NCBI GenBank assembly: GCA_934154785.1
Contig: CAKPGL010000002.1
Coordinates: 75,805 to 139,804 of the forward strand
Length of the DNA stretch: 64,000 nt
DNA from: an uncultured Bacilli bacterium
GTDB taxonomy: Bacteria > Bacillota_I > Bacilli_A > RF39 > UBA660
Direction of reading: 5' to 3'
The notes under the pieces: generated by a model
Told to the model about the DNA's origin: nothing
Database searches by the model: none
Seen by the model: the letters and a program-made list of their open reading frames with translations, nothing else
Shown here: positions 2,593 through 27,897 of the stretch, piece by piece
How the letters are laid out: the number at the start of each line of letters is the position of its first letter
Numbering within the stretch: position 1 is the stretch's first letter
Program-made: the position numbers and the translations under genes

Positions 2593-2693
2593 TATTTTGT
2601 TAAAATTTTTAAATATAATTTTTTTATGTTAACTAGTATTGTTTAATCTAATTGTTTTGTGTTATAATGGAAAAAAATAGAAGAGGTTGTATT

Positions 2694-2984
2694 ATGGATA
2701 GTAAAAATGAGTTCAGTAGATTAGATGAAGAATTGGCGTTTAAAATTACTGTAAATGGTAGGGAAGTTGTTTGCTATATTTTATTAACTTTTAATAATCC
2801 AACTAATAACAAGAACTATATTATTTATACAGATGGAAGTAAAGACGAAAATGGACAAATGGAAATTTTAGCATCTGCATATCAAATAGAAGATGGTAAT
2901 ATTAAATTAGAAGAGATAACAACAGATTATGAATGGAATATGGTTGATGAAATGTTAAAACAAGTGGGTGAAAAAAATGAATAA
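2694..2984 (+). CDS. DUF1292/UPF0473-like small acidic protein.
   Basis: The pattern ...VNGREVVCYILLTF...YIIYTDGSKDENGQMEILASAYQIEDGN...EWNMVDEMLKQ resembles the DUF1292 family. The start was moved to the ATG that follows the SD AGAGG. Confidence 0.5.
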   Translation: MDSKNEFSRLDEELAFKITVNGREVVCYILLTFNNPTNNKNYIIYTDGSKDENGQMEILASAYQIEDGNIKLEEITTDYEWNMVDEMLKQVGEKNE

Positions 2985-4350: not shown

Positions 4351-4406
4351 TATACTTATGCAGTATTGTTAGTATTTTTATAAAGTATAGAATAAAGAGG
4401 TTATAT

Positions 4407-5840: not shown

Positions 5841-5942
5841 AAGTATATTAGTTTACTAAAACGAGTTAAGTATTAGTAAGCTAATTGCTTTTTTTTAGAT
5901 TTTAGCATATAATTTTTATAGTTATAGAAACGAGGGATAATC

Positions 5943-7604: not shown

Positions 7605-7659
7605 AAAATGAATAAAAAGTCTCCTTTTGGTTCAAGATGAACTAGAAAGGAGATTTTTT

Positions 7660-8436
7660 ATGGCACGTCATAAAGTAGAAATCTGTGGCGTGAATACTGC
7701 GAATATAAAAGTATTAAGTAGTGATGAAATGTTAGAATTGTTTAAAAGATATCAAAATGGAGATAAAACTGCTAAAAACGAACTAATAGAAGGTAATTTA
7801 AAACTAGTTTTATCAATATTAAGAAATTATAGTAATCGAACAGATAATATGGATGATCTATTTCAGATAGGTTGTGTTGGTTTAATTAAAGCAATTGATA
7901 ATTTTGATTTATCACATGAAGTAAAATTTTCTACCTATGCTGTTCCTATGATATTGGGGGAAGTTAAGAGATATTTAAGAGATAATAGTAGTATTAGGGT
8001 AGCGCGTAGTATTAAAGATATAGCGTATAAGTCATTACAGGCTAAAGAACAATTGACTAATGAATTAGGTAAAGAACCCACTATAGAAATGATTGCTAAA
8101 AAATTAGGCTTAACAGAATACGAAGTAACAAATGCTTTAGATTCTATGAAAGATACTATTAGTATGTTTGAACCTATATATAATGATGGTGGCGATACGA
8201 TTTATTTAGCCGATCAATTAGAAGATAAAAATAATAGTATGTATTCAATAGATGATAAAATGGCTTTAAGAGAAGCATTAAAAAGTTTGAATACCAAAGA
8301 ACGTGAAATTATTATAAAAAGATATATAATTGGTAAAACACAAATGGAATTAGCACGTGAATTTGGCATATCTCAGGCACAGATATCTAGAATTGAGAAA
8401 AATAGTTTAGATAAAGTAAAAAAACTCATTTTATAA
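7660..8436 (+). CDS. sigG: Sporulation sigma factor SigG (forespore late sigma). The start was moved to MARHK.
   Basis: Colinear with B. subtilis SigG: KVEICGV(D/N)T, DDLFQ(V/I)GC(I/V)GL(M/I)K(S/A)IDNFDLSH(N/E)VKFSTYAVPMI(I/L)GE(I/V)(R/K)RYLRDN, FEPIYNDGGD, GKTQME(V/L)A(E/R)E(I/F)GISQAQ(V/I)SR(L/I)EK. Confidence 0.85.
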   Translation: MARHKVEICGVNTANIKVLSSDEMLELFKRYQNGDKTAKNELIEGNLKLVLSILRNYSNRTDNMDDLFQIGCVGLIKAIDNFDLSHEVKFSTYAVPMILGEVKRYLRDNSSIRVARSIKDIAYKSLQAKEQLTNELGKEPTIEMIAKKLGLTEYEVTNALDSMKDTISMFEPIYNDGGDTIYLADQLEDKNNSMYSIDDKMALREALKSLNTKEREIIIKRYIIGKTQMELAREFGISQAQISRIEKNSLDKVKKLIL

Positions 8437-8515
8437 TCTGATATTGCAAACAAACTATTGTCAAAAAATGTAAAATGTGTTATCCTTTATATAGAATAGA
8501 GGAGGTAATTAAGAT

Positions 8516-10669: not shown

Positions 10670-12096
10670 AATTAAAGAAAATATTTATATTGTTAATACT
10701 ATTGATTCCAGCAATATTTGCTGGTGGTATAGTAAAAGCTGAGGCAATAACATTTGGTGTTTATGCTAAAAAAGTTGGTACTTCAAATAGTGAAAAAATT
10801 GCTGGAGTTGGATATGAAATATATCAAGACAGCTGTTCTAGTGGTACTAAATTATATAGTGGTACTACAATACAAGGTGATTTTACACGCCATAGTATAG
10901 AAAGTGGTACTACTATTTGTATTAAACCAACAGAAGTACCGTCGACAGATTATAAATTACCTGGCGAAGCAATTAAAACTGTTACTGGTAGTAATAGCAC
11001 TCATGGTATTATTCTAGAAGAAAACACTAATAAAACTAAAATTAGCTTTGCTTATGCAATTACAGATAAAACAGATGGTCATATGATTGATAGTGGAAAA
11101 ATCAGAATTAAACAAGGTGGCGTAAAAGATAACAAATGTACTGGTACAGATATTAAAATCTCAGAAGATGGTTACGGTTACACTTCGAGTACTCCTGTAC
11201 AAATTGGCCCATATGAGTATACAACTGCTCCTAGTAAGGTTTGCATTGAATTAGTTGAAGAGATAGCGGGTTATCAATATCCAGCTGCTCAAGAATTTAC
11301 AGTTGATAGTGATTTAGTTAATACTTACTTGGTTCTTGATAAGAAAAGTACAGATGAGCCTAGCCAAAAAACCAGTTATACAATTGGATTAAAAGCGAAA
11401 GATACAAGTAAGTATTTAAAAGGGAAAATTACTATTACAGATGGTACCGTAGAAAATGGAAGTTGTAGTGGAAATGATCTTGTTTCTAAATTTACAATTT
11501 TCTCCGCTTCAACTAAAACTACTGCAATGCCAAAAAGTACAACAGGTCATATTTGCATAGAAGTTAATAGTTTAGATAACACAAGTTATAAGATACCAGA
11601 ACCAAAAGAATTTACTTATGAAGATGATGGTACTTATGAAATTGAGGTAGAAAAAAAAGATGATGGTAGTACTGTCACTCATCCAACAATAAAGGTTGGA
11701 TTTAAATATAAGGACAATTATGTAAAAGGTATTCAATTTGCAATTTATAAAAAAATGGGTTCTGGTGATAAGTGTAGTACTATTCTGAGAGATAGGTTAA
11801 CAAGTATTAGTAAATTACAATCTTTAGAACTTAGTTCACTTGAAGAAATGCCGAATTCAGTTTGCATTGAGGTTGTTCAGAGTAACCTTGGCAATTATAG
11901 TGTTAAAGAGCATGCAGTGTATACCGTAAAGAATGGTGTTGTGGAAATAGAACTTGGTGATAAAGTAATATCTCCCGATACTATGTCAAATGTATCTATA
12001 ATAGTTATTTCGGCCGGATTAATTGTTCTAATTTTGGGTGGTTACCTGTTATATACAAATAAAATAAATAAGGAGGAAAATTCAACTGAGAATTAA
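10666..12096 (+). CDS. Pilus subunit-like surface protein with four Cys-pair repeat domains and the sorting signal SPDTMSN.
   Basis: Signal peptide; four ~100-aa repeats, each with an N-terminal C(S/T)G and a ...CIE(V/L) motif. The C-terminus is SPDTMSN, then TM, then KINKEEN. Confidence 0.6.
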   Translation: MKLKKIFILLILLIPAIFAGGIVKAEAITFGVYAKKVGTSNSEKIAGVGYEIYQDSCSSGTKLYSGTTIQGDFTRHSIESGTTICIKPTEVPSTDYKLPGEAIKTVTGSNSTHGIILEENTNKTKISFAYAITDKTDGHMIDSGKIRIKQGGVKDNKCTGTDIKISEDGYGYTSSTPVQIGPYEYTTAPSKVCIELVEEIAGYQYPAAQEFTVDSDLVNTYLVLDKKSTDEPSQKTSYTIGLKAKDTSKYLKGKITITDGTVENGSCSGNDLVSKFTIFSASTKTTAMPKSTTGHICIEVNSLDNTSYKIPEPKEFTYEDDGTYEIEVEKKDDGSTVTHPTIKVGFKYKDNYVKGIQFAIYKKMGSGDKCSTILRDRLTSISKLQSLELSSLEEMPNSVCIEVVQSNLGNYSVKEHAVYTVKNGVVEIELGDKVISPDTMSNVSIIVISAGLIVLILGGYLLYTNKINKEENSTEN

Positions 12097-12110
12097 GAAT
12101 AGGTGAGAAG

Positions 12111-13733
12111 ATGAAAAAAAATAGATTATTTAATATATTAAAATTTTCTACATTAACATTGTTTACATTAGCTGCTGTGTTTCCTACAGTGATAAAGGCA
12201 GAAGATACAGATCCTGATGCTATTAAAATAGTAGAATATAGGGCTTGTACTGATTCGGGTGCTGGCTGGAAAGACCCAGAAAAATCAGCCGGATTAACTA
12301 TTGGTGCTAGTTCTAATTGCTTTTTGGCTCGAGGTTCTTCTTATAAATTAACAGCGTTATATAAAGACGGAACTTTGAATGATACTACGCCAACTGTTGC
12401 ACTTAGGTTAAATGTTAACTTACTTTCTCCGGCACAAGATAGATTAGATATTGTCAATAAAAAATTAGTTACTGATGATACTACTTGTAAAAAAATTGCC
12501 AATTATTATGGAAATGATGAGGGAATATATGCTGGACTAGGTCAGCTTTTAAAAGGTGTTGATGAAAGGCGTAAAGAGAAAAGTGATAATCACGTATATG
12601 TTACAACAGATGAACAGTATTTTGCTTCTTTGGCGATGAGTCAATTTATTTCTGAAAAATTAAACAAGAGTAGTTATGCATTAAAAGGCGAAAGTGTTTC
12701 AAATGACGCAATTGCAAGTCGTTATAATGAGTTAGAGGAAGGATATATTAAAGCTACTACTGCAGTACCAGCACAAATAAATAATAAAACTATTAAAACA
12801 TTTAAAATGCAATATATGATTGATGATAATAAAAAGGATTATTTATACAAATCTAGTTTTATTACTTTTAAAGATGCCACGCTATTAGATAAATATACTT
12901 CAAATAAAGGACAAGTTGAGTTATTTAACTTTACTTTAAAGAATAAAGATACCGGTGATTTATATGATGATTATGTTTATGCAGCAATTCAGAATAATAA
13001 ATCAACTAGAGCTCATGATTTAGTATATCAATTTGGTATTTGTGATAGTCTAGACTTTCAAGTAAAAGATTATGCAAATTGTAAGGCATTAAAGGGTAAA
13101 AAGTTACCTGCAGGTAATTACGAATTAGTTGTATCAGTTAATGATGCTATAACATATTCAAAAGTTAAAACTATTTATTCTTGTACATCTTCTAGTTCTA
13201 CTACAGGATATACACCTATTGTATTAAGTAATGGTAATTATTCAACTGCTAAAAATTCAATTAAATATGATTTAACAAGTGAATTTACAGTAGAATCAAA
13301 TCCAACACCTGTGGTTCCAGATGATAAACCAATAGAAAAAATTGGTACTATTAAGGTTAGTATTGTTGACAAAAATAAGAAATTATTAACTGGTGTTAAA
13401 TTTCAAATTTGTGAAGATAGAGATTGTAATTCAATAAAAAATACTGCTACTTCAACAAATGAATCTTATATTGCACCTAATATACCATTTGGTAAGTATT
13501 ATATTGTGGTTACTGAAGTACCTAAAGGATATGTTGTTCCTACTACAGTTGAAGTAGCTGAATTAAGTACTTCTAACACAGTTGCAGAAAAAACTATAGT
13601 AATAGAAGCTACTACTAATGTACCTGATACTTTATCTAATATATCTAAATTATTCTTGATTTGCGGTATAGTTGGTATAATAGCGGGAACTTATTTAGTG
13701 TATAGTAATGCTAAGAAGCAAGAAGAAGTATAA
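12111..13733 (+). CDS. Pilin/adhesin with a C-terminal CnaB domain and the sorting signal VPDTLSN.
   Basis: Signal peptide; CnaB-like block IGTIKVSIVDKNKKLLTGVKF...FGKYYIVVTEVPKGY. The C-terminus is VPDTLSN, then TM, then NAKKQEEV. Confidence 0.7.
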   Translation: MKKNRLFNILKFSTLTLFTLAAVFPTVIKAEDTDPDAIKIVEYRACTDSGAGWKDPEKSAGLTIGASSNCFLARGSSYKLTALYKDGTLNDTTPTVALRLNVNLLSPAQDRLDIVNKKLVTDDTTCKKIANYYGNDEGIYAGLGQLLKGVDERRKEKSDNHVYVTTDEQYFASLAMSQFISEKLNKSSYALKGESVSNDAIASRYNELEEGYIKATTAVPAQINNKTIKTFKMQYMIDDNKKDYLYKSSFITFKDATLLDKYTSNKGQVELFNFTLKNKDTGDLYDDYVYAAIQNNKSTRAHDLVYQFGICDSLDFQVKDYANCKALKGKKLPAGNYELVVSVNDAITYSKVKTIYSCTSSSSTTGYTPIVLSNGNYSTAKNSIKYDLTSEFTVESNPTPVVPDDKPIEKIGTIKVSIVDKNKKLLTGVKFQICEDRDCNSIKNTATSTNESYIAPNIPFGKYYIVVTEVPKGYVVPTTVEVAELSTSNTVAEKTIVIEATTNVPDTLSNISKLFLICGIVGIIAGTYLVYSNAKKQEEV

Positions 13734-14397
13734 TTTATCATTTGTTTTTGGTATTTTATTTATAATTTGTGGATTAGTTATTATACTTTACAATTATTTT
13801 GAAACCAAAAAAATTGAGAGTTTTGATAGTATGAGTATTGCTTTATTGGAATCTGAAACTCCTAGTAATATTGATGATGATTCTAATTTACCAAATGATA
13901 TAGAAGAACCTACAACTGATGATGAACCAAATCAACCTGATAATCCAGTTGTAGAGCGACCTAAGCCACAACCTAAACCAGTTGATTATACAAAGTATTA
14001 TGTAGGTACTCTTGAAATACCTAAGATAAATTTGAAAAAGGGATTTCTAAATATTGATTCACCATATAATAATGTTGATAGGAATGTTACCGTAATCAAG
14101 TCATCTGATTATCCAGATGTTACAAATGGCAATTTTATATTAGCGGCTCATACTGGTAGTAGTAGTATAAGTTTCTTTACTAAACTACACGATTTATCAA
14201 TTGGTGATTTAGCATATATTAATTACAAAGAAAAAAAGTATACTTATCAATTAGTAAATATATATACTCAGCCTAAAGTTGGTTGGATTAATATTTATCG
14301 TGATACAAGTAAAACTACTTTAACGTTGGTTACTTGTACTAAAAATACACAAGAAACGCAAACAATATTTATATTAGAATTAATAAATGTAGAATAA
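13708..14397 (+). CDS. Sortase (transpeptidase), presumably the pilin-specific sortase for this locus.
   Basis: N-terminal TM, catalytic His in LAAHTG, catalytic Cys in TLVTCT, and downstream Arg (IYRD). Overlaps the upstream pilin gene by 26 nt. Confidence 0.75.
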   Translation: MLRSKKKYNLSFVFGILFIICGLVIILYNYFETKKIESFDSMSIALLESETPSNIDDDSNLPNDIEEPTTDDEPNQPDNPVVERPKPQPKPVDYTKYYVGTLEIPKINLKKGFLNIDSPYNNVDRNVTVIKSSDYPDVTNGNFILAAHTGSSSISFFTKLHDLSIGDLAYINYKEKKYTYQLVNIYTQPKVGWINIYRDTSKTTLTLVTCTKNTQETQTIFILELINVE

Positions 14398-16591: not shown

Positions 16592-17572
16592 ATGAAGAAA
16601 TTTAAGATATTATTTATAGTAGTTTTAATACTCATTACAGGTTGTTCTAATAATAAGGAAAAGGAATACAAACTAAATTTGTATTATATGGATACTTATA
16701 TTTATGTTGATTTCTTTTGTCAGGATTCTACTAAAGCTTCTAAAATTAAAGATGATATTGATAACATCTACAAAGAATATCATGAGTTATCTGATAGATA
16801 TCAAGCGTATGATAATATAATTAATATTTATAGTATTTATAATAATACTAGTAAAGAAAAAACACTTACTATTAATTCTAAATTATATGATTTATTAGAT
16901 TACACTTTGAGTTTTCAGACCAAAACAGATGATAAATTTAATATTGAAATAGGTTCTACTATTGATGTGTGGAAAAAGTATCGCGATTTAGGAGAAGGTA
17001 TTCCTACTAAAAAAGAATTAAATAATACAAAAAAAATAAATCATGTTACTTTACTAGGTGATAATCAAATATTAAATAATCATCCTAATATAGATTTAGG
17101 CGCTATTAGCAAGGGTTATACCACGGAATTAGTAGGTAAATACTTAGAAGAAAATGGTATTACTAAATATTTAATTAATGCTGGAGGGAATGTTAAAGTA
17201 GGTATTCCAAGTAATAAAGAGGCATATTCTATTGGTATTCAAAGCCCTAATAAGGATGGCTCTTTACTTACGGTTGTAAAGGGTAAAAATATTAGTGTCA
17301 TAACTAGTGGTAGCTATGAAAGAAATTATACTTATAATGGTATAACTTATTCACATATTATAGATCCTGTTACACTATATCCCGCTAATAATATGAAAAG
17401 CGTTACTGTAGTAACTAAAGATAGTGCTTTAGGGGATATATTATCAACTACCTTGTTTTTAATGACTGTAGATGAAGGAAAAGAATTTATTAAAGATTAT
17501 GATGTAGAAGCTATCTGGGTTACAAATGATGATCGTATTATTCGTAGTGAAGGATTTAGTGCTTATGAATAA
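16592..17572 (+). CDS. apbE: FAD:protein FMN transferase (ApbE family) lipoprotein.
   Basis: Lipobox LITGCS; ApbE motifs SHIIDP and GDILSTTLFLM. Confidence 0.8.
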   Translation: MKKFKILFIVVLILITGCSNNKEKEYKLNLYYMDTYIYVDFFCQDSTKASKIKDDIDNIYKEYHELSDRYQAYDNIINIYSIYNNTSKEKTLTINSKLYDLLDYTLSFQTKTDDKFNIEIGSTIDVWKKYRDLGEGIPTKKELNNTKKINHVTLLGDNQILNNHPNIDLGAISKGYTTELVGKYLEENGITKYLINAGGNVKVGIPSNKEAYSIGIQSPNKDGSLLTVVKGKNISVITSGSYERNYTYNGITYSHIIDPVTLYPANNMKSVTVVTKDSALGDILSTTLFLMTVDEGKEFIKDYDVEAIWVTNDDRIIRSEGFSAYE

Positions 17573-17930
17573 AAGCGATAAAAGACTACTTTTGATATTA
17601 ATTGTTTTGATAGTTATTACCTGTTTAATTATTTATTTTACTAAATCTAATAATCCCAAAAACGCCTTAGTATATTATAAAGATAATTTAGTATTAACTA
17701 TTGATCTAAGTACTAGTGGTATAAAAGAATATACTGTTTCTGGAGAATTAGGAGATGTTATAATAGAAAAAAATAATGAACAAATTCGTGTAATTGGTGA
17801 AAACAGTCCTAATCATATTTGTAGTAAACAAGGTTATATCAAAGAAAGTTATGAAATGTTAATATGTTTACCTAATAAAGTCGTTATCAAAATAGAAGAT
17901 AAAGATAACGTTGATACAATAGTAAAGTAG
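17565..17930 (+). CDS. NusG-domain-II (DUF1312)-like small membrane-anchored protein.
   Basis: N-terminal TM followed by a beta-rich domain. Its position between ApbE and the Gx transporter is the conserved flavinylation-cluster arrangement. The start was moved to the ATG overlapping the apbE stop. Confidence 0.5.
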   Translation: MNKSDKRLLLILIVLIVITCLIIYFTKSNNPKNALVYYKDNLVLTIDLSTSGIKEYTVSGELGDVIIEKNNEQIRVIGENSPNHICSKQGYIKESYEMLICLPNKVVIKIEDKDNVDTIVK

Positions 17931-17937
17931 GTGTTAT

Positions 17938-18447
17938 ATGGAAATAAAAAAATTTACTAGATTATCTATGCTTTTAGCTTTATCAGTAGTATTAAATATT
18001 GTTGAAAGTTTTATTCCTTTTTTTAGTGGTACTATACCAGGTTTAAAAATAGGTCTTGCTAATACAGTCATACTATTTGTTTTATATACTTATTCTTTTA
18101 AGGATGCTTTTAGTCTTTCCTTACTTAGGGTAATACTAGTTGGTATACTTAGAACTGGTTTATTTAGTATTACATTCTTTTTTAGTTTAAGTGGTGCTAT
18201 TCTTAGTATTATTACTATGTATTTATTTAAAAAGTTTACAAAACTATCTATTATAGGTATTAGTATAATTGGTTCTATTATGCATTCTATTGGTCAAATA
18301 TTAGTAGCAGTATTACTAGTACAAAACATTAATATAGTTTACTATTTACCTTGGATATTACTATTTGCTATACCGTCTGGTATATTAGTAGGATTTATTA
18401 GCAAAGAATTACTTAAATATTTTGATGTAAAGTCCCTTGATAAATAA
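17938..18447 (+). CDS. Gx-transporter-family / heptaprenyl diphosphate synthase component I-like membrane protein.
   Basis: Small 5-TM protein with a typical PF07456-like pattern, next to ApbE and an FMN-binding protein. Confidence 0.5.
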   Translation: MEIKKFTRLSMLLALSVVLNIVESFIPFFSGTIPGLKIGLANTVILFVLYTYSFKDAFSLSLLRVILVGILRTGLFSITFFFSLSGAILSIITMYLFKKFTKLSIIGISIIGSIMHSIGQILVAVLLVQNINIVYYLPWILLFAIPSGILVGFISKELLKYFDVKSLDK

Positions 18448-18487
18448 TTATTTTTAATATATAATTTTTATAGAAAGTAGGGATAAG

Positions 18488-18922
18488 ATGAAAAAATTAT
18501 TTATAGCATTTTTAGCAGTTTCTTGTATTTTTATCACGGGTTGTGGCAATAAAACATTAAAGGAAGGTACTTATAAAGGTACCGCTATTGATAACTATGG
18601 TGGTGAAGAAAATACTGCTAGTGCCGAAGTAAAAATAGATGCTGAAGGAAAAATAACTTCAGTATACTTAGATACAACTTATAAAGGATCCACAAAAAAG
18701 GCTTTAAAAAATGAATATGGTATGAAAGGTCATCCTTATGGTTCAAAAATAGGTGAGTGGTATGAACAAGTTGAAAGACTAGAAGCCGCTATTGTTGAAC
18801 ACCAAGGTACAGATTTTTTAGCACTAGGTGAAGATGGTAAAACTGACGCGGTAAGCGGTTGTACAATAAGTATTAGTGCTTTAGTAGAAGCTACTAATAA
18901 AGCTATAGCACAAGCTAAATAA
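18488..18922 (+). CDS. FMN-binding-domain lipoprotein, the putative flavinylation substrate of ApbE.
   Basis: Lipobox ITGCG. The C-terminal motif DAVSGCTIS resembles the FMN_bind [ST]GA[ST] flavinylation site. Confidence 0.6.
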   Translation: MKKLFIAFLAVSCIFITGCGNKTLKEGTYKGTAIDNYGGEENTASAEVKIDAEGKITSVYLDTTYKGSTKKALKNEYGMKGHPYGSKIGEWYEQVERLEAAIVEHQGTDFLALGEDGKTDAVSGCTISISALVEATNKAIAQAK

Positions 18923-18988
18923 TATAGATTAAAAAGAGTTTACTTAGGTAAGCTCTTTAATTTGCTAATAAAATAAATTATTGATATA

Positions 18989-20698
18989 ATGTTTAAGGTG
19001 ATTTACTTGGAAAAATTAGATTCTATTTTTGAATATTATCAAGGTACTAAAGCATATTCCTTATTTTTATTAAACCAATTTGGCGATAATCAAAATGGCA
19101 CTTATATATTAGATAAAAACAACTACAATGCTGCTAGAGTAGCCTTTATTTCTATAATATTACTTGATATTAAAGAAGATATATTAGAAGACTTAGGAAA
19201 TTCTAATTTTAAATCTAATATATTTAATGATGAACTTATCAAATCAGTTAATTTACTTGCTACTAAAGATGGTGATAACTACGTAATAAACAATTACAGA
19301 TTTAAAGATGCTCCTACTTTAGTAGCGGTTCTTAGAAATAAACTTGCACATGGGAATTTTACTTTAGATACTGAACATTCTAGAGTTATAATTGATATAA
19401 ATGGACAAAACGTTATTCTTAATATAGATAAACTTGCCTTATTTGTTGCTTCATCTTTAAAAAACACTTATTTAAAAATGAAAAAAGGTAATTATACTAA
19501 AAATATTTTAATATCAAACAAAATATATGCTAATAGAAAATTACCTCTTTCTAAAGAAAAACTGATAGAGTTAATTACTACCTTTAATAAAATTAGTTTT
19601 ACTTTAGAAAATAAAGTAGGTGGTGATATACCTAAATATATTTTAGAGGAAGCTGATGCCTCAATTTATGCTTATAATAAAACTGGAGATATAAAATATA
19701 TAAATCATTTTAATAATAGTTATGAAGATTATAAATTAAACTCTACTAGAGAAAAAATAAAATATGATAAACAAAGTTTTGATTATATTGTGGATAATGT
19801 ATTGAAACAAACAGAAAAAAATAATTTATCTTATGATGCACAAGTAGAAGTATTAAAGCCTTTACTTGATAAGAAATTTTTAAAAAAGGAAAAAATCGAT
19901 GAAAGAATGGGTGCATTTAAAAATTTAATTTTATTAGATGCAGCTTATAAAATAAATAGTATTGATCAGAATAAAATAGGTAAATATATATCTACATATT
20001 ATACACCTGATACTTATTTTAGTATTAATAACGATTCTTTAGCGGCTTCCGCTTTAGCGATGTTTCAGGCTCTATTTTCATATTCTAATGATGATTTATA
20101 TAATGATGGTTTAGAATATGAAAATAATTATAATAGTGGTTTAGATTATTCCAAATTAGATTTATCAAAAATAAAAATTAGTTATATAGAACCTGATAAT
20201 AAAATTATAAGTATTCTAAATGAAAAGAAAGTAGCTAGAGAAAAAGGTATATTAGAATTACAAGGTTCTATAAATAAAAAAATGACAAATTTAAATAATG
20301 TTAAAGCAAAGGGTAATATTACCGCTATTGAAAATATAGAAAAATCTTTAATTGAGAGTAACGAAAATTTATCAAATCTTCAAAATGACTTAAATAATAT
20401 AAATCAAAAAATAAGTAATATTACAACGTATCAACTTAATAATAAATTACATTTAACAAATAAGGCTATAATTACTTGTATAAGAAATTCTATTGCTCAC
20501 GGCCATTATAAATTTGTATATTCTAATGATTACAGTGATGTTAAAATAGTTTTTAATGATATATACGAAGGTAAAATAACATTTAGTGCTGAAGTAAATA
20601 TAATTGATTTTATAGAATTGTTGTATGAAAATGATCATGTAATTATAGATTTTGTTGAAAATAATATAGAAAGAACTAGACAAGGTAAATCTATCTAG
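18989..20698 (+). CDS. Protein of unknown function with two HEPN-like Rx4HG motifs (LRNKLAHGNF, IRNSIAHGHYKF) flanking a coiled-coil segment; predicted RNase.
   Basis: Two R-N-x-x-A-H-G motifs at residues ~115 and ~510. Heptad-like N/L/I/K-rich segment at ~400-480. The start is uncertain: ATG 18989 or the TTG after the SD AAGGTGA. Confidence 0.45.
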   Translation: MFKVIYLEKLDSIFEYYQGTKAYSLFLLNQFGDNQNGTYILDKNNYNAARVAFISIILLDIKEDILEDLGNSNFKSNIFNDELIKSVNLLATKDGDNYVINNYRFKDAPTLVAVLRNKLAHGNFTLDTEHSRVIIDINGQNVILNIDKLALFVASSLKNTYLKMKKGNYTKNILISNKIYANRKLPLSKEKLIELITTFNKISFTLENKVGGDIPKYILEEADASIYAYNKTGDIKYINHFNNSYEDYKLNSTREKIKYDKQSFDYIVDNVLKQTEKNNLSYDAQVEVLKPLLDKKFLKKEKIDERMGAFKNLILLDAAYKINSIDQNKIGKYISTYYTPDTYFSINNDSLAASALAMFQALFSYSNDDLYNDGLEYENNYNSGLDYSKLDLSKIKISYIEPDNKIISILNEKKVAREKGILELQGSINKKMTNLNNVKAKGNITAIENIEKSLIESNENLSNLQNDLNNINQKISNITTYQLNNKLHLTNKAIITCIRNSIAHGHYKFVYSNDYSDVKIVFNDIYEGKITFSAEVNIIDFIELLYENDHVIIDFVENNIERTRQGKSI

Positions 20699-20723
20699 AC
20701 TAAAATTCAGGGGGGATATAAAA

Positions 20724-21719
20724 ATGGAAGGGACTAATAATTTATTTTCACAATTTAGTGAATTAGACAAAAAAGAATTAATTTCTTTTTTAGATAATTT
20801 TTATTTACATTATCGTAATAATTTGAATTTTAATGATACTACTTTAACTTTTGGTATTGAAATAGAATTTGAAAAAATTTTATTAGAGGAAGTAGAGCAA
20901 TTATTAATAAATAGTAATTTAAAAAACTGGTTAACCAAAAAAGAACGTTCTATAATTACGGGTGGTGAAATAAATAGTACTATATTAAATGATAATCAAA
21001 CAAATTGGTTAGGAATTAAAAAAGTTTGTTCTATTTTAAAAGAAAACAACGCTAAAATCAGTGAAAATTGTGGTGGACATGTACATTTTGGTAGTAATAT
21101 TTTAGGTGATAATTATAATAGCTGGCTAACATTTATAAAATGTATTATTGCTTTTGAAAAAGTTTTATTTAGATTTGGTTATGGTGAAGAAGTAAAAGAA
21201 AGACATTCTGTTAGAAAATTTGCTTATCCTGTTTCTTATTTATTAAAAGAAATACTTTATTCTGAAAATATAGACTTTAATAATATAAATACTGAAAAAC
21301 TATTAGATATTATAAAAGATAGAACTAGTAAAAGAAGTTCTGTTAGTTTTCAAAAAATTTGTATTAAAAATTTAGATAATATAAAAAATAATACAATAGA
21401 ATTTAGATTTCCTAATGGTACAATAGAAGAAATTATTTGGCAGAACAATATAAATACTTTAGGTAAACTTTTATTAGCGGTTAAAAATGATAAAATAGAT
21501 ATTGATGTTATTGATTTTTTACTTAAAAATATTCAAAAAGAAAGTAACATTAATATTTTACTAATGGACTATGGTTCTATTCATTTAAATACAGCTTTGT
21601 TATTTTGTGATATGATTTTTGATAATGATTTAGATAAATTATATTTTCTTCGTCAGTATATAAAAAATTCTTATAAAGATACTTATCAAGAACGTCAAAA
21701 AAAATTTATTATTAATTAA
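20724..21719 (+). CDS. Glutamine-synthetase-fold carboxylate-amine ligase (amidoligase)-like protein.
   Basis: N-terminal GxExEF-type strand (TFGIEIEFE) and metal-binding CGGHVHFGS, reminiscent of GS GSGMHxHxS and the Amidoligase_2/GCS2 families. Confidence 0.4.
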   Translation: MEGTNNLFSQFSELDKKELISFLDNFYLHYRNNLNFNDTTLTFGIEIEFEKILLEEVEQLLINSNLKNWLTKKERSIITGGEINSTILNDNQTNWLGIKKVCSILKENNAKISENCGGHVHFGSNILGDNYNSWLTFIKCIIAFEKVLFRFGYGEEVKERHSVRKFAYPVSYLLKEILYSENIDFNNINTEKLLDIIKDRTSKRSSVSFQKICIKNLDNIKNNTIEFRFPNGTIEEIIWQNNINTLGKLLLAVKNDKIDIDVIDFLLKNIQKESNINILLMDYGSIHLNTALLFCDMIFDNDLDKLYFLRQYIKNSYKDTYQERQKKFIIN

Positions 21720-21769
21720 AATGTAAGAATTATTTATTTATAGTATTCCATACTAATTATGGTGATAGT

Positions 21770-22204
21770 ATGAAGTATGTATTAAATATAATGATTCTTT
21801 TTATTTGTGTTTTTTTACTTTTAATTATAGATAATGATTATATAAGTGTTCCAGTTGTATCATTAGATAGTGATTATTATCAAATGTATGATATATATGC
21901 TGATAACTTAACTACTAAAAACTTTACTAAATACTTTAGTGATACATCTAATTTTATTGCGGTATATCCTGATATAAATTTAATTTATAAAGAAAAACTA
22001 GGTAATATATATTTTGAGTGTAAAAATAAATTTAACTTAGATGCTTTTATTTCTTATTATAAAAAAGTACTTGAAAAAAATAATTATAAAAATGATTTAG
22101 TAAATATTGATTATTATGGCGTTTCTATAAAAAAGATTATGGTATACGCTAATAAAGAAGAATTAGCACAAATTTTAAATAATTGTACAATTTGTTTTAT
22201 TTAA
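21770..22204 (+). CDS. Small protein with an N-terminal signal/TM helix; unknown.
   Basis: The ORF has SD TGGTGA; N-terminus MKYVLNIMILFICVFLLLII. Confidence 0.4.
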   Translation: MKYVLNIMILFICVFLLLIIDNDYISVPVVSLDSDYYQMYDIYADNLTTKNFTKYFSDTSNFIAVYPDINLIYKEKLGNIYFECKNKFNLDAFISYYKKVLEKNNYKNDLVNIDYYGVSIKKIMVYANKEELAQILNNCTICFI

Positions 22205-22246
22205 ACCTAGCTAGTATGTTATAATTACTATGTCAGGGGTGATTTA

Positions 22247-23086
22247 ATGATCTGTTATGGTATTAATGATATGTATCGTAAAGAAATATATAAATGTGAT
22301 GAAAAACAAATTTTATTATTTTTTGATGAACTAGATAGTGCCACTAAAAATATTTATTTACGTATAATGGTAACAGATGGTTTACAGGTTTTAGAAAGAA
22401 GAAGACAATATAATGAAAGTGATCAATATTCAAAAAGGTTATATAAAATTCTAAGTAATTCTGACTTTGAGCATATTAAGTCTGTTTTAGAAGATAACTA
22501 TATTTTATTTCAAGTATTATTTGTAAATGCTAAAGGATTTTATAAAATGCCTATCGTAGATAGATGTCTTTTAGTTGGAGAAAGAGAAAATAAAATCCTA
22601 AATTATAAATTACTATCTTTAAACCCTTTTTATCTAGTAGATGTTTGTGTATACACTATTCAAAAAGATATTGATAGTATTTACTACTATTATAATGATT
22701 ATCAAAATAAGTTAGGTAGTAAACAGCTTAAAAGTTTTTATCAGTTGGTCTTAGTAATGATGGAAAAACTAAAAGAGGAGAATACTAATTTATATAATAA
22801 AAACTTTTTAGAATTTTTAAAAAATTTTTATGTTGGAAATAAATTTTTACAATCTATAGATGAAATTTCTTCTTTAGAAACAAAACTTTATCATGATATG
22901 CTAGAAAAAGAGGAATTAGATTATGTAATAAGTCTTCTTGAAAGTACACCAGAAGATCTTATGAAAGTATTAGCGATTTCTTTTGCGTATCACTCAGATA
23001 TGGCTGGCACTAAAGAGGAGAAAAACTTTATAAATGAGAATGTTAATTCTGATATGATAAAAAAATTACAACTTAATAATAATTAA
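22247..23086 (+). CDS. Hypothetical alpha-helical protein (279 aa).
   Basis: The ORF has a strong SD AGGGGTGA and a -10-like TATAAT upstream. No motif recognised. Confidence 0.4.
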   Translation: MICYGINDMYRKEIYKCDEKQILLFFDELDSATKNIYLRIMVTDGLQVLERRRQYNESDQYSKRLYKILSNSDFEHIKSVLEDNYILFQVLFVNAKGFYKMPIVDRCLLVGERENKILNYKLLSLNPFYLVDVCVYTIQKDIDSIYYYYNDYQNKLGSKQLKSFYQLVLVMMEKLKEENTNLYNKNFLEFLKNFYVGNKFLQSIDEISSLETKLYHDMLEKEELDYVISLLESTPEDLMKVLAISFAYHSDMAGTKEEKNFINENVNSDMIKKLQLNNN

Positions 23087-23191
23087 AGAACTATTAGGAA
23101 ATTAACGAATATTTTCTTAATAGTTTTTTTAATAATGATTTGCTTTTTTTAAAATAATATTATAAAATATCCCTTGTTTTGGGGGATGATT

Positions 23192-26100
23192 ATGAAATCT
23201 ATCAGTGAGTTTGATTTAAAGGTTTTAGGTAACACTTTTATTCCAGATATTTTTAAAATTAAGATTATTAATAAACTTAGTATTGAAGACATTATATTTC
23301 ATCAAAAAAAATTTTGTCCTAATCTTGGATTGTTAGATGGGAATTATCTATTAAAATTAGGATTAAAATATCGTAAAAGAGAAATTCTTGAATATTTTAA
23401 GTCCTTTGATGTAGATGATACGGTAAATTTTTCTGTTTTAAAAAGTATACTTATAATAGATGAACATTTAAATAATTATATAATAAAGGTACTTGACATT
23501 TCTGTTATTGATAAACTTATTTCCGGTAATATAAATAGTGATGAAACTTTTAAAAGAATATGTAGGTTACGTAAGAATGATGTTTATGCATTAATTAATA
23601 CCGCTATTAAAGATAATAGATATCAAGATTATGTTAGTTATTGTACACCAGATAGATTAAAGGAGTATATTATAAAAAAAGTTGATATTAACTATCTAAT
23701 ATTGGATTTGACATCCACTAATTCTACTTTAACCAAAACTATTTTAAAGTATAGAAAAAAAGATATTGTTGAATATGTTAATTTAAACTCCAATAACATT
23801 CCTGAGTTAGAAAATTTGTTAAAAATGGATTTGCCTAAAGAAGTTTATAAAATGCTATTAGAGAAATTTCCTATTGATAATAGAATGATTTCTTATATAT
23901 TTTTACATTGTTCTACTGATTTAAAAGATTTATTATTTTTACTTTATCCAGATAAAGTATATGCTTGGGTGGATGAATTTCTAATTGGTGATAAACACTT
24001 TGATATAATTCAACTTAGATATAATAAATTAACATCTTATATTGTAAATAAGCTAAACCTTGAACAATTAGATGATGTAATAAAAGGTAATTTAACGATT
24101 TATTATAGTGACTTTATTAATGAATTATTTAAAGTTAGAAAAGAAGATATCATTAGTATAATAACAGAAAATGTTTCTTTAGATAATTCAAAAATAATAG
24201 ATTATTTATCTTTAAAACTACCTGAAAATATATTAAAGTCTATTATGTACTGCATTGATGTTAATGAAAACATATTAAATATAATTTTAAAAAATGGTAA
24301 TTCTAGTGTTATAGAAAATGTATTTAAAATATATAAAAATGAATTATTACTTATAATTAATAAAAATTCTAAAACTGATAGAATAGCATTCTTAGATAAG
24401 TATTTAAGACAATATGCTTATCCAATAACTTTACAAATAGAATTATTGAAAGACTTAACCGATGAAGAGATAATTTATATTATGTCACAAGGCGTTTTTG
24501 GATATGCGTTAAAGGATAAAATATATGAATTATATAAAGATAGAATTAATAAGATATACAGTAATTTATTATTAAGTGATATAGAAAAAGCAACTACAAT
24601 TTTTAAAAATTCCGCTATAACTGATTTTAGATCGGATATAATTAATAATTATGATTTTAAATACTTACGTTATTTTTTAGATGAAATGAATGAAACGGAA
24701 AAAGAAAAACTATATAAAAAATTCCCTAGGGAACTTAAAGAAATGCTAAGAGCTGAATATTCTAATGATTTATTAGAATTTATAAAAAGAAGGGTTTTAG
24801 ACTGCAATAGTGTAGTTTTAACTTTAAGCCTGAAGTTACTTACTTATGATGATATTATTTTTGCTTTAAAAAATAATATTGATTTTAAATATTACTATAA
24901 TGAAAAATTAAATAAATTAATGGAATCAGCTATAAAAAGTAAAGCTAATGATATAAAGAATTCTCCTTATGATGAATGTTTAATCTTTTTGAAGTCTCTA
25001 AGAGAAAAATTTGATGATTTATTTATTGTCTTTTTAAATAGCATAGAACTTGATGATGATTTCTTACATAAATTATTTATTGAAAGAGGTCTATCTGATA
25101 AACAAAAAGATATTTTATTTAAGATGAAAAGCAATGATATTTTAAGAATTGTTAAAAATAAATTATTAAATGATGAAGTAGATCCTATTGAATATATTCA
25201 AAAGGGTACCCCAGATGATGTGCTAGAACTTGCACTATCTTATATTGAAAAAGATAGAGTAATAAGTTTATTAAATGATCCCAATTTTATTAACAGAAAA
25301 AGTATTGGAAAAAGCTTTGCCTTAAAATTAGCCATAATAGTAAATGTTAATAAAGAGAATGTTCAAGAAGTAGAAAATCTTGTCAAATATTATTCTAAAG
25401 ATATATATGAATTTATTAATAATTATGAAAAAATATATTCTTTTTTAAAACTTAGTAGTATAGATGTTTCAAAGTTTTGGCAATATTCCTTAAATACAAG
25501 TTATAACTTTATAAGCGATATAGTTAAAATATACGAAGATGATTTAGATATGTTTTTACGTGTTAAGGATATATTATTTACATATGTTTATGATGATAAC
25601 AATAAATATTCTTATCAAAGTTTTGTAAATATTATAAAGAATTATAGTAGATATAAAAAACTATGTATATCACTTACTGAAGTAGAAAATTTAGGCGCAA
25701 TTAACTTTAATAATATTAAATTATTATTTAATCAAGATAAACTTATACCAAATATAAATATGTATAATGACTGTGGTAACATTATTAATGTGATAAAGGA
25801 TGAATATATGACAATGTTAAAAAAATGTTCATCAATTGATGAATATAAAGATACTTTATTACAACTATTATTTAATCACAATATTAAATCAGTTGAAGAA
25901 ATGCTTAATAATTATGGTAAAGTTAGTGATTTATTACAACTTAAATATTATAATTTACATAATAAAGAAGTATTAGATAAGATAGACTGTGTTATACCTT
26001 ATACTGAATTAATGGAAGAAATATTATATTGTGATGATATTAATGCTTTAAAAAGAACAATTGATGATACTATTAATAATATAAATTCTATTTTAGTAGA

Positions 26101-27487
26101 TTTTAATTATACTAATTACGATGATTTGATGCGCGAATTATACGCTATAGAAATGGATATGAACTTATCTAAGGTTGGTTATAATGTTGATGTAGATAGT
26201 GTAAAATTAGAAGAAAAATCTAAATTATATGGAGTAGATATATATGATTTTAGAGATAAGCAATATGCTTTATTAGCACATGTATTAAGTGATTCAGAAA
26301 ATATAGATGATTTAATACAGGGTAATTCTAGTGGAACATTTAATTTCATATCACTTTCCGCAATAAGTTATAGAATGCAATCATATTATTATGGTGCTAA
26401 AAATATGATATTTGGTTATGATGAAATGCCTAATTCTAATTTTGTTTGTAGTTCCGATAGCAACATGGGAACAAATTATTCAATAACAAAAAATTCAATT
26501 GAGATGACCCCTATTAATAGAAAACAAAGAGGCTTATTAGAAGTTAGTGATACTGATAGTAATTCTGAAATATTATCTTTAAGAGAAGGTATGAAACCTA
26601 AGTATATTATTTGTCCTGGTAGACTACCTTCTTCAGAGGAACTTAGATGTGCTTTAAAATATAATTTAAAAATTGTTTTAACTCAAGAAATTAATGAAAC
26701 TATTCTTTCTCCTAAACCAATTAATAAACTAGTAGAACCTAAACCTAAAGTATCAAAGGAATATTTAATAGAGTTTAGAAATAAAGTAATTAAAACTGGT
26801 AATAAAAATAAGGTAGCGGTTATAACAGATGCTCATGGTATATTAGAACCTACTTTAGCGGTACTGGAAGATATACGTAAAAAAGGAATAACTAAAATAT
26901 ATTCCTTAGGAGATAATATAGGTACTGGTTCTAATCCTAGTGAAGTGTTAGATATATTAAACCACTATGGAGTAAAAAGTATTAAAGGCAATCATGAATT
27001 GTATCTAATAGATGGGGTAGATGAGTATAAAAAGCATTTAATTGAAACTGGTGCGTATGAAGAGGAAACAATTAACACAAGTTGGACGCGTGACAATTTA
27101 ACAGCAGAACAAGTAGTAGATATATCTAAATATGATAATTATGTAGAATTAGATGTTGCGGGCAACAAGGTATTATTATGCCATTACTTATATGACTATA
27201 ATGAAAACAAACCATTATATGATATAACTAAATATGATTTAGTTATTCAAGGTCATAAACATTTTCAAGCACAATCTGGAAAAATTGTAACATTAAAAGC
27301 AATAGGTATTGGTAATAAAAGTAATGATGATATAGGTAACGCTACTTATATGATTATTGATTTAAATGATAAAGAACATCCATATGAAATAATAAATGTT
27401 CCTTATGCCTATAAAAACTCTATTAATGATGAAAATGTTTCTTCTAATAATTGTAAACAAAAAATAATGAATTGGATTGGTAAATAA
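23192..27487 (+). CDS. Giant (1432 aa) protein: ~1150-aa N/K/I-rich alpha-helical N-terminal region plus a C-terminal calcineurin-like metallophosphoesterase domain.
   Basis: The C-terminal ~260 aa carry an intact MPP motif set: ITDAHG (DxH), LGDNIGTG (GDxxxxG), GNHE, and GHKH. No Walker A anywhere. The start was moved to the ATG 8 nt after the SD GGGGGA. Confidence 0.6.
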   Translation: MKSISEFDLKVLGNTFIPDIFKIKIINKLSIEDIIFHQKKFCPNLGLLDGNYLLKLGLKYRKREILEYFKSFDVDDTVNFSVLKSILIIDEHLNNYIIKVLDISVIDKLISGNINSDETFKRICRLRKNDVYALINTAIKDNRYQDYVSYCTPDRLKEYIIKKVDINYLILDLTSTNSTLTKTILKYRKKDIVEYVNLNSNNIPELENLLKMDLPKEVYKMLLEKFPIDNRMISYIFLHCSTDLKDLLFLLYPDKVYAWVDEFLIGDKHFDIIQLRYNKLTSYIVNKLNLEQLDDVIKGNLTIYYSDFINELFKVRKEDIISIITENVSLDNSKIIDYLSLKLPENILKSIMYCIDVNENILNIILKNGNSSVIENVFKIYKNELLLIINKNSKTDRIAFLDKYLRQYAYPITLQIELLKDLTDEEIIYIMSQGVFGYALKDKIYELYKDRINKIYSNLLLSDIEKATTIFKNSAITDFRSDIINNYDFKYLRYFLDEMNETEKEKLYKKFPRELKEMLRAEYSNDLLEFIKRRVLDCNSVVLTLSLKLLTYDDIIFALKNNIDFKYYYNEKLNKLMESAIKSKANDIKNSPYDECLIFLKSLREKFDDLFIVFLNSIELDDDFLHKLFIERGLSDKQKDILFKMKSNDILRIVKNKLLNDEVDPIEYIQKGTPDDVLELALSYIEKDRVISLLNDPNFINRKSIGKSFALKLAIIVNVNKENVQEVENLVKYYSKDIYEFINNYEKIYSFLKLSSIDVSKFWQYSLNTSYNFISDIVKIYEDDLDMFLRVKDILFTYVYDDNNKYSYQSFVNIIKNYSRYKKLCISLTEVENLGAINFNNIKLLFNQDKLIPNINMYNDCGNIINVIKDEYMTMLKKCSSIDEYKDTLLQLLFNHNIKSVEEMLNNYGKVSDLLQLKYYNLHNKEVLDKIDCVIPYTELMEEILYCDDINALKRTIDDTINNINSILVDFNYTNYDDLMRELYAIEMDMNLSKVGYNVDVDSVKLEEKSKLYGVDIYDFRDKQYALLAHVLSDSENIDDLIQGNSSGTFNFISLSAISYRMQSYYYGAKNMIFGYDEMPNSNFVCSSDSNMGTNYSITKNSIEMTPINRKQRGLLEVSDTDSNSEILSLREGMKPKYIICPGRLPSSEELRCALKYNLKIVLTQEINETILSPKPINKLVEPKPKVSKEYLIEFRNKVIKTGNKNKVAVITDAHGILEPTLAVLEDIRKKGITKIYSLGDNIGTGSNPSEVLDILNHYGVKSIKGNHELYLIDGVDEYKKHLIETGAYEEETINTSWTRDNLTAEQVVDISKYDNYVELDVAGNKVLLCHYLYDYNENKPLYDITKYDLVIQGHKHFQAQSGKIVTLKAIGIGNKSNDDIGNATYMIIDLNDKEHPYEIINVPYAYKNSINDENVSSNNCKQKIMNWIGK

Positions 27488-27494
27488 TATATAA

Positions 27495-27540
27495 AAAGAA
27501 TCTACCAAGAATTAATCATTTAATTCCTGACAGATTCTTT
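27495..27540. terminator. Bidirectional nested hairpin (AAAGAATCT...AGATTCTTT enclosing GAATTAAT-cat-TTAATTC) between the convergent giant gene and the HIT gene.
   Basis: Inverted repeats read directly from the sequence. It overlaps the HIT stop codon. Confidence 0.45.
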
Positions 27541-27897
27541 TAGTATGTTATAAATGTCTTCTACTTTTTTAATTTCTTGTTTATCTTTATAAAATGGTTT
27601 TAAATGTAAATGAAAGTGTTTTACTTCTTGAATACAACCATTATTTTGAATTAAGGTTAAACCATCTATATGAAGTTTATCTTCAAGTAGTTTTTTCATT
27701 TTTTGTGCTATTTTAAATATGTGGTTCATAGTTGCTTCATCCATATCACTTAAATTTACAATGTGTTTTTTAGGTATAATTAATGTATGACCATTTGTAT
27801 CAGGGTTAATATCTAAAAATACTTTTACGATATCATCTTCATAAATAGTATAAGAAGGAATACTTCCAGAAATAATTTTACAAAAAATACAATCCAT
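27520..27897 (-). CDS. HIT-family (histidine triad) nucleotide hydrolase.
   Basis: Histidine-triad motif HFHLHL and the N-terminal CIFCKI motif. Confidence 0.8.
   Translation of the reverse strand: MDCIFCKIISGSIPSYTIYEDDIVKVFLDINPDTNGHTLIIPKKHIVNLSDMDEATMNHIFKIAQKMKKLLEDKLHIDGLTLIQNNGCIQEVKHFHLHLKPFYKDKQEIKKVEDIYNILKESVRN

Follow-up and report, generated by a model that had tools for sequence, protein, structure and literature searches.

In a 64,000-nucleotide stretch of chromosomal DNA from an uncultured Bacilli bacterium (assembly GCA_934154785.1, contig CAKPGL010000002.1, positions 75,805 to 139,804 of the forward strand; hereafter the window) we identified a gene for a protein that carries two HEPN-type modules in a single chain, which we refer to as the tandem-HEPN protein. 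The gene is located at 18989..20698 on the plus strand, as are the other parts of the gene and of its five-gene block given coordinates below. We favour, with moderate confidence, the reading that the protein is a self-contained ribonuclease (RNase) with an intramolecular composite active site, which would be activated by a trigger and would probably have a role in conflict or stress. As listed, the open reading frame (ORF) encodes 569 amino acids (aa) and ends with the stop codon TAG at 20696-20698. The true start is probably the TTG codon at 19007-19009, giving a product of 563 aa, since all homologues start at residue 7, where column 7 of the family alignment holds a conserved methionine, and since a Shine-Dalgarno sequence (AAGGTGA, 18994-19000) is found upstream of this codon. 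The gene call of P0001, a 97%-identical relative, is also 563 aa long. Although the shorter product is the probable one, residue numbers throughout are those of the 569-aa ORF.

Two motifs with the HEPN Rx4-6H form and a polar residue after the arginine, RNKLAH (116) and RNSIAH (499), were found in the ORF, and both are conserved in the homologues. In full, the first is RNKLAHG (R116...H121) at 19334..19354 and the second RNSIAHG (R499...H504) at 20483..20503. An earlier note, made from the DNA letters, had placed motifs of this kind near residues 115 and 510. The first of these starts at residue 116, in good agreement with the note, and the second is real but is found about 10 residues away from the position given, at residue 499. 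Translation of the whole 64-kb window in all six frames gave two occurrences of RNxxAHG, and both are within the tandem-HEPN ORF. The looser Rx4H was found nine times in the 20,679 ORF residues of the window, with two of the nine in this ORF. When the protein was shuffled, RNxxAHG was seen in none of 20,000 shuffles and two or more Rx4H motifs in 0.6% of them. By these counts, the pairing of the motifs in one ORF is not a product of chance.

The motif residues were also the most strongly conserved polar positions of the family. In an alignment of 109 full-length homologues, with 18-40% identity to the query, the residues of motif 1 were retained in nearly all members (R116 in 105/109, N117 in 98/109, H121 in 106/109 and G122 in 105/109), and the same was true of motif 2 (R499 in 108/109, N500 in 102/109, H504 in 107/109 and G505 in 104/109). 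The only other near-invariant polar positions in the family were K62, E63 and N491. The K62-E63 pair (19172..19177) is located at the end of helix 2, and E63 is a candidate for the acidic residue of the active site because it fits the helix-2 acidic feature for which a role in the HEPN active site has been described (PMC3710099). Deviations from the motifs were found in seven of 114 members, four with an R-to-K exchange in motif 1 and three with loss of a catalytic histidine. In two of these three the histidine was lost from both motifs together. Both motifs were intact in all tandem paralogues.

To compare the modules with known families, the family alignment was split into an N region (1-170), a middle region (165-400) and a C region (395-569), and the members were scanned singly. 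Pfam scans of the N modules gave matches to HEPN_MAE_28990 in 6/38 (best E 5e-4), to pEK499_p136 in 2/38 and to HEPN_Apea in 1/38, all below cutoff, and the C modules matched pEK499_p136 in 13/38 (best E 3.8e-6) and HEPN_MAE_28990 in 7/38. The other Pfam families matched by the C modules were mostly long-helix or coiled-coil families and probably reflect composition. HEPN families (pEK499_p136 and MAE_28990) were the sole recurrent Pfam families for either module, and nothing recurrent was detected in the Pfam scan of the middle region of the members. When full-length proteins were scanned, homologues with about 40% identity matched PF18736 (HEPN pEK499_p136) with 19.7-23.3 bits and E down to 6e-5, in the C-terminal motif region only; the gathering threshold of this family is 26.6 bits. 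No match to PF18736 was obtained for the window protein or for its closest relatives, P0001 and P0003.

The founder of the pEK499_p136 family is a 166-aa 'HEPN family nuclease' of plasmid pEK499. Comparison with this lone sequence gave a weak result, and a stronger one was obtained with a family profile built by aligning 31 diverse true members. With hhalign, the C module matched this profile with a probability of 91.2% (E 1e-6) over 63 columns, as against 0.3% for the middle region, which served as the negative control. The N and C modules of the tandem-HEPN family matched one another with 94.6% (E 7e-8) and 93% (E 3e-7) in two independent alignments. In the alignment of the N module with the pEK499_p136 profile, K62-E63 is paired with the invariant P-K-E of the family, and the RNxxAH motifs of both are paired as well. 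Profile similarity ties the C module to a recognised HEPN family in a direct match, and the N module by way of the C module. Based on these comparisons, the C module is homologous to a recognised HEPN family and the N module is a diverged duplicate of the same unit, so that the protein arose by internal duplication.

The predicted structure agrees with this division. An AlphaFold2 model computed from 114 diverse sequences reached a predicted local distance difference test score (pLDDT) of 94.7 and a predicted template modelling score (pTM) of 0.92; it superseded an earlier model from 10 sequences (pLDDT 62), which was too poor. The N-terminal HEPN module, supported by AlphaFold, hhalign and the sub-cutoff Pfam matches, comprises residues 1-165 (18989..19483). 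In the model it consists of helix 1 (2-30), helix 2 (43-65), an alpha/beta insert (66-105) and helix 3 (108-120), with the motif at the end of helix 3, followed by a three-stranded sheet (124-145) and helix 4 (146-162). The C-terminal module, supported by AlphaFold, hhalign and the Pfam family pEK499_p136, comprises residues 401-569 (20189..20695). It contains two helices (405-441 and 444-484) and helix 3 (486-503), which ends in R499...H504; a three-stranded sheet (507-537) and helix 4 (538-568) follow. Judged on the order of the secondary-structure elements, each motif is at the helix-3 end of a four-helix unit, which is the helix position given for the motif in the definition of HEPN (PMC3710099). 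The strand-strand-helix pattern after the motif is common to both modules and the aligned true pEK499_p136 proteins, and a beta-hairpin directly after the motif has been described in Csx1 (PMC3710099). No structural match to a solved HEPN domain was obtained.

The earlier note had claimed two HEPN-type modules in one chain and had proposed AlphaFold as a way of checking for two HEPN folds. This claim is upheld by the homology between the N and C modules, by the match of the C module to a HEPN family and by the position of the motifs at the ends of helix 3, and the helix order in both modules matches HEPN topology at the level of secondary structure. In the prediction, the entire chain forms a single rigid body. 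An intramolecular composite active site is plausible, in view of the pTM of 0.92 and the joint loss of the histidines in two of the three members with histidine loss.

The first two helices of the C module (405-441 and 444-484) are predicted to form a long antiparallel helical hairpin (20201..20440). It is much elongated, its sequence is variable and few of its positions are conserved. Tropomyosin and keratin were among the matches of the hairpin profile, which were of the composition type, and the Pfam pEK499_p136 matches reach into the hairpin (homologue residues 438-545). This segment had previously been read as an N/L/I/K-rich coiled coil at about 400-480 lying between the two motifs. The segment is real and consists of two long helices, but in the AlphaFold topology of the C module it represents helices 1 and 2 of the second HEPN module and not a spacer between the modules. 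The real spacer, which the earlier note did not mention, is about 230 aa long (166-400; 19484..20188) and is the most variable part of the protein according to the alignment. It is modelled as an alpha/beta and helical region, and it had no Pfam family and no PDB sequence match. A third conserved segment, MFxxLFxYxxDDxY...GLDYSxLDLS (residues 355-395; 20051..20173), was seen in the alignment just ahead of the C module. The middle region is a candidate sensor or regulatory domain. Searches of the PDB by sequence, with the whole protein as well as with profiles of the N, middle and C regions, gave coiled-coil or noise matches only.

A word-indexed search detected close relatives with 91-97% identity and a large clade with about 40% identity, all of about 558 aa. 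When 1.84 billion representatives were searched exhaustively with a profile, 271 clusters (counted at 50% identity) were obtained with E <= 0.001, and the majority of their full-length sequences were 530-600 aa long and matched over the entire length. Another profile homologue search added one further abundant clade and no further diversity. All named sources were metagenome-assembled genomes of uncultured gut 'Bacilli', 'Tenericutes' or 'Bacillota'. A genome scan with a narrower alignment gave 11 loci, and the taxonomic spread is a lower bound. The family is uncharacterised, chromosomal and confined so far to uncultured gut Bacilli.

HEPN RNases normally need dimerisation, and in the structurally characterised ones the active site is built from the two Rx4-6H motifs of two domains. 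In the explanation that we favour, the two modules of the tandem-HEPN protein would derive from internal duplication of a pEK499_p136/MAE_28990-type domain, with the lineage-specific region of about 230 residues between them, and the protein would be cytoplasmic. Based on what is known of HEPN enzymes (Cas13, Csm6, RNase L/Ire1, Las1 and HepT), we infer that the modules pair within the chain and thereby bring the two R/H motifs together in one composite RNase site that needs no metal, so that a single polypeptide would suffice where ordinary HEPN proteins form a homodimer. Pairing within the chain fits with the motifs being conserved together and, in two members, lost together. With less confidence, we suggest that the enzyme may be kept in an inactive state, from which it would be released when the variable middle domain and/or the variable hairpin senses a trigger, for example phage infection or stress. 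The activated enzyme would then cleave cellular or invader RNA (tRNA, mRNA or rRNA) and cause growth arrest, in the manner of single-gene abortive-infection HEPN proteins. Neither a guide RNA nor an obligatory partner protein would be involved. The system is self-contained in that no constant neighbour gene, no CRISPR array and no non-coding RNA were found. A constant partner gene was rejected because the candidates, namely an amidoligase, the small membrane-anchored protein fam6 and a D12 methyltransferase, are each present in some lineages only.

Several results weigh against this explanation. The window protein had no match in Pfam (at E <= 1), NCBIfam, PHROGs or PADLOC, and a direct family assignment was rejected for this reason. 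A search of PADLOC-DB v2 at E <= 1 recognised no component of a defence system in the tandem-HEPN protein or in its four downstream neighbours. Every Pfam HEPN match of the family was below cutoff, the PF18736 threshold not being reached, and the direct match of the N module to the pEK499_p136 profile was weak (4.5%, E 0.009). Most of the genomic contexts of the family are housekeeping neighbourhoods and not defence islands, and searches of 50,697 phage records, 72,556 plasmids and IMG/VR gave no copy of the tandem-HEPN gene. Carriage on mobile elements was rejected on the basis of these zero counts among phages, plasmids and viral contigs.

The last two of these points, together with the lack of a PADLOC match, also keep alive the main competitor of a conflict role, a lineage-specific housekeeping or stress RNase of small-genome gut Bacilli. 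Such an enzyme would act in RNA processing or turnover with the same chemistry, either constitutively or under physiological regulation, as Las1, a eukaryotic HEPN RNase, acts on cellular RNA. The gene is chromosomal and is flanked in most lineages by genes for leucyl-tRNA synthetase (LeuRS) and penicillin-binding proteins (PBPs), SMC and FtsK-like proteins, RecG and YebC, beta-lactamase, an AI-2E transporter and similar functions, and the recurrence of a recG/yebC/vanY neighbourhood in several genomes suggests vertical inheritance. However, the gene's position relative to recG/yebC differs among genomes, and the tandem-HEPN protein evolves much faster than the flanking RecG, with identities in the same genome pairs of 34-37% as against 51-67% for RecG, and of 88% as against 98% in the closest pair. 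The copy number also varies, tandem paralogues with 20-35% mutual identity being found in four loci (L012, L013, L014 and L021). In the window the gene is part of an AT-rich block, and in related genomes it is missing within 10 kb on either side of the FMN_bind block next to which it stands here. In the 558-aa clade it is embedded at a restriction-modification (R-M)/GmrSD island, where it closes a cluster that contains SocA_Panacea, two methyltransferases, RE_AlwI, GmrSD and a D12 methyltransferase and is followed by alanine racemase. A general defence-island context was rejected, as this arrangement is limited to the one clade. The pEK499_p136 and MAE_28990 families have been reported beside R-M and methylase genes (PMC3710099). 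The fast evolution, the variation in copy number, the accessory AT-rich block, the one R-M-island clade and the R-M and methylase links of the related HEPN families favour a conflict role, as in abortive infection or a toxin, over housekeeping, and we consider the housekeeping RNase unlikely.

Less likely still is a two-gene module in which the Amidoligase_2 protein encoded next to the tandem-HEPN gene covalently modifies and controls the RNase, or a target shared with it, in the manner of MNT and HepT. The amidoligase gene is a direct neighbour in three of about 11 lineages, which do not form one clade (the window and L005, L010 and L014, L012 and L013). In L012 and L013 two HEPN paralogues are followed by two amidoligase paralogues, and in the window the two genes are 25 nucleotides (nt) apart with no terminator between them. 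A precedent is offered by HepT/MntA, in which AMPylation of the HEPN toxin by its antitoxin has been confirmed experimentally; nucleotidylation by the MNT antitoxin of its HEPN partner has been proposed (PMC3710099). On the other hand, Amidoligase_2 was not found in the other approximately eight of the 11 contexts, even with a hidden Markov model search. The gene is on the opposite strand in L010 and L014, where the two genes are convergent, and is separated by gaps of 275-331 nt in L012 and L013, and the window copy lacks the N-terminal extension of about 200 aa that the others have. The genomes also share synteny, and the adjacency may be merely inherited.

A catalytically inert HEPN-like scaffold, binding nucleotides or proteins and keeping the motifs for structural reasons, appears very unlikely. 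Some HEPN families are indeed non-catalytic (PMC3710099), and the window copy has a cysteine at residue 497 (nt 20477-20479), two residues ahead of the catalytic R499, in place of the glycine found in 94 of the 109 aligned members, the 97%-identical P0001 included. The R, N, H and G of both motifs and the helix-2 K-E are near-invariant at 18-40% identity, which represents a conserved active-site signature, and inactive HEPN families usually lose the R or the H. The least probable of the readings, and one to which we give hardly any weight, is that of a miniature, Cas13-like RNase guided by RNA, or of a Cas13 ancestor that predates CRISPR and has survived. It would account for two HEPN domains in one compact chain, and a published model derives Cas13 from the fusion of two defence-associated HEPN genes (PMC12165695). 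The HEPN modules, however, group with pEK499_p136 and MAE_28990 and not with the AbiD/F-Swt1 group, and Cas13 was not found among the PDB sequence matches or the Foldseek matches listed. No CRISPR-like repeat array was detected in the window or in 29 loci, which include all family loci (L001-L022). The statement in the earlier note that no CRISPR array or cas gene is present holds for the array over these sequences; outside the tandem-HEPN gene and its four downstream neighbours, the window was not searched for cas genes. Rfam scans gave no RNA at the gathering threshold in the window and none at E <= 1 in a permissive scan around the gene (18300-21900), and in the related loci a T-box leader was the only RNA family detected. 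The abiF RNA motif (RF03085) was not found in any of these scans, that of 18300-21900 included. The intergenic spaces flanking the tandem-HEPN gene in the window are just 66 and 25 nt. The CRISPR or guide-RNA reading was rejected, there being no array and no Rfam RNA.

Among the known systems closest to the tandem-HEPN protein are the pEK499_p136 proteins, of which its second module is a distant relative. The C module shares with true members the motif [IL]RNS[IV]AH followed by a strand, 'D.I.F.D', a further strand and a helix, the N module has the K-E of the family's invariant P-K-E, and both groups are predicted RNases. The true members, most of which come from Proteobacteria and Bacteroidota, have a single domain and a length of about 155-167 aa, whereas the tandem-HEPN protein has 563-569 aa and two modules, with a novel insert of 230 aa and a hairpin of helices 1 and 2 that is much elongated. 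Of the N-terminal F..RT....QY and NCLLGLIVLPKE motifs of true members only the K-E is kept, in the N module. We have not filed the protein as a member of this family, because it fails the Pfam cutoff and differs in architecture.

The RNxxAHG form of the motifs had been described in the earlier note as one seen in Abi_2/AbiD-like and Cas13-type HEPN domains. A place of the protein in the Abi_2/AbiD or Cas13 clade was not supported, as the recurrent Pfam families were pEK499_p136 and MAE_28990 and no match to Abi_2, Cas13 or abiF was obtained. Neither Abi_2 (PF07751) nor Swt1 was matched in the Pfam scans of the window protein, its homologues, the N modules or the C modules. AbiD/F proteins are about 350 aa long and have one HEPN domain. 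The AbiD/AbiF (Abi_2) proteins of Lactococcus resemble the tandem-HEPN protein in being stand-alone HEPN proteins of Bacilli with an RNxxAH-type motif, and differ from it in that the latter has no PF07751 match and no abiF RNA motif, is larger and has two HEPN domains. By analogy, its mode of action would most likely be that of AbiD/AbiF, a trigger-activated RNase that halts growth. With Cas13, including the compact Cas13an, it has in common two HEPN domains per chain and the RNxxxH form of the motif. The HEPN domains of Cas13 pair intramolecularly to give one RNase site and cluster with AbiD/F and Swt1 (PMC12165695). In contrast, no CRISPR array, CRISPR RNA (crRNA), REC domain or crRNA-binding domain was found for the tandem-HEPN protein, and its HEPN group is that of pEK499_p136/MAE_28990. 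The resemblance to Cas13 is one of convergent architecture and not of ancestry.

HEPN dyads are also known in the eukaryotic Swt1 and in archaeal Csx1 of the MJ1666 type (PMC3710099). The Swt1 dyad is fused to a PIN domain and is described as inactive, and the CRISPR-associated Csx1 carries a fused CARF/Rossmann sensor; sequence similarity to the tandem-HEPN family or its middle domain is not detectable in either of them. HepT-MntA resembles the present case as a HEPN RNase in need of restraint and offers an analogy for control by a neighbouring modifying enzyme, the difference being that the candidate modifier here is a glutamine-synthetase-like amidoligase present in a minority of loci. No MNT protein was seen among the annotated neighbours in the window and the related loci, some of the neighbours having no family assignment.

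To our knowledge, few proteins hold both HEPN halves in one chain, namely Cas13, Swt1 and some Csx1, and a HEPN fusion step is central to current ideas on the origin of Cas13. In the present family the same fusion took place independently in another HEPN clade, with a new intervening domain that is possibly the switch. What is new is the architecture, an independent HEPN duplication with a novel intervening domain, in an uncharacterised family of a superfamily that is already known. The principle itself is not new, as both the chemistry and the dyad architecture have precedents. Being compact, self-contained and apparently free of a guide RNA, the protein may offer a tractable model for the off/on control of an intramolecular HEPN site, and it is a candidate for a new single-gene defence or toxin module in poorly studied bacteria of the human and animal gut. 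More tentatively, and as a possibility that we regard as doubtful, the protein may represent an independent Cas13-like fusion in which a complete, switchable RNase site is gated not by a guide RNA but by a protein sensor made up of the middle domain and the hairpin, with modification by the amidoligase in some lineages. If this protein-gated solution is true, small-genome gut Bacilli would have an immune or toxin RNase of their own that is new and encoded by a single gene, and the 'fusion of two HEPN genes' from which Cas13 is postulated to have originated would have a natural example in it.

The window has a GC content of 26.6% and nearly all of its genes are on the plus strand. The tandem-HEPN gene is the first of an AT-rich block of five genes (18989..27487), with a GC content of 22.3% as compared to 26-27% in the flanks and with no counterpart in four related loci (L026-L029). 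It is followed in the block by the Amidoligase_2 gene (331 aa, 20724..21719), which has its own ribosome-binding site, and then by genes for a 144-aa membrane-anchored protein, a 279-aa protein and a 1437-aa metallophosphoesterase protein; a hairpin terminator at 27494-27541 follows the block. Upstream of the tandem-HEPN gene are pilin and sortase genes and a glycosyltransferase gene, and then the ApbE, NusG_II, Hpre_diP_synt_I and FMN_bind genes. In the related genomes L026-L029, which have 55-69% identity in housekeeping proteins, a HIT-SufCDS block is directly followed by the ApbE...FMN_bind block, and neither a tandem-HEPN gene nor an amidoligase gene was found within 10 kb. The five-gene block is therefore accessory at the window site. 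Its location exactly at the junction of the two blocks suggests a rearrangement or an insertion hotspot. The ApbE/NusG_II/Hpre_diP_synt_I/FMN_bind block (16592-18922) and the HIT/SufCDS block are adjacent in the window as well as in L026-L029, in reverse order.

The Amidoligase_2 (PF12224) genes of the other loci were located at 9675-11441 (-) in L010, 5910-9360 in L012, 4673-8126 in L013 and 11346-13064 (-) in L014. Their products are 570-588 aa long, and the N-terminal extension that is missing from the 331-aa window copy is helical and of no known family. The 144-aa protein of the window (21770-22204) is a member of fam6, small proteins (about 145 aa) that begin with a hydrophobic segment and match no known family. 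Further copies were found in L010 (12592-13041) and L014 (14270-14722), at a distance of two to three genes from the tandem-HEPN gene and after a VanY-type carboxypeptidase. In the 1437-aa protein (23174-27487) a C-terminal calcineurin-like metallophosphoesterase domain (about residues 1213-1397) is the sole recognisable part; its first approximately 1200 residues are rich in N, K, I and L and have no family match, and it was found only in the window and in L005, the relative with 97% identity.

In L001, from a related gut Bacilli genome, a dense defence cluster (2573-9946) stands directly upstream of the tandem-HEPN gene. It contains a SocA_Panacea antitoxin-like protein, an N6_N4 methyltransferase, two D12 methyltransferases, an AlwI-type restriction enzyme and GmrSD_N (DUF262). 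In L021 two very divergent paralogues with 20% identity (4354-6111 and 6967-8667) are separated by an uncharacterised 215-aa gene, and in one of the two the second motif is altered to RDALSHA. Further upstream in the window (8516-14397), a pilus-type cluster encodes SpaA-domain pilin-like proteins and a sortase, as annotated via the near-identical L005.

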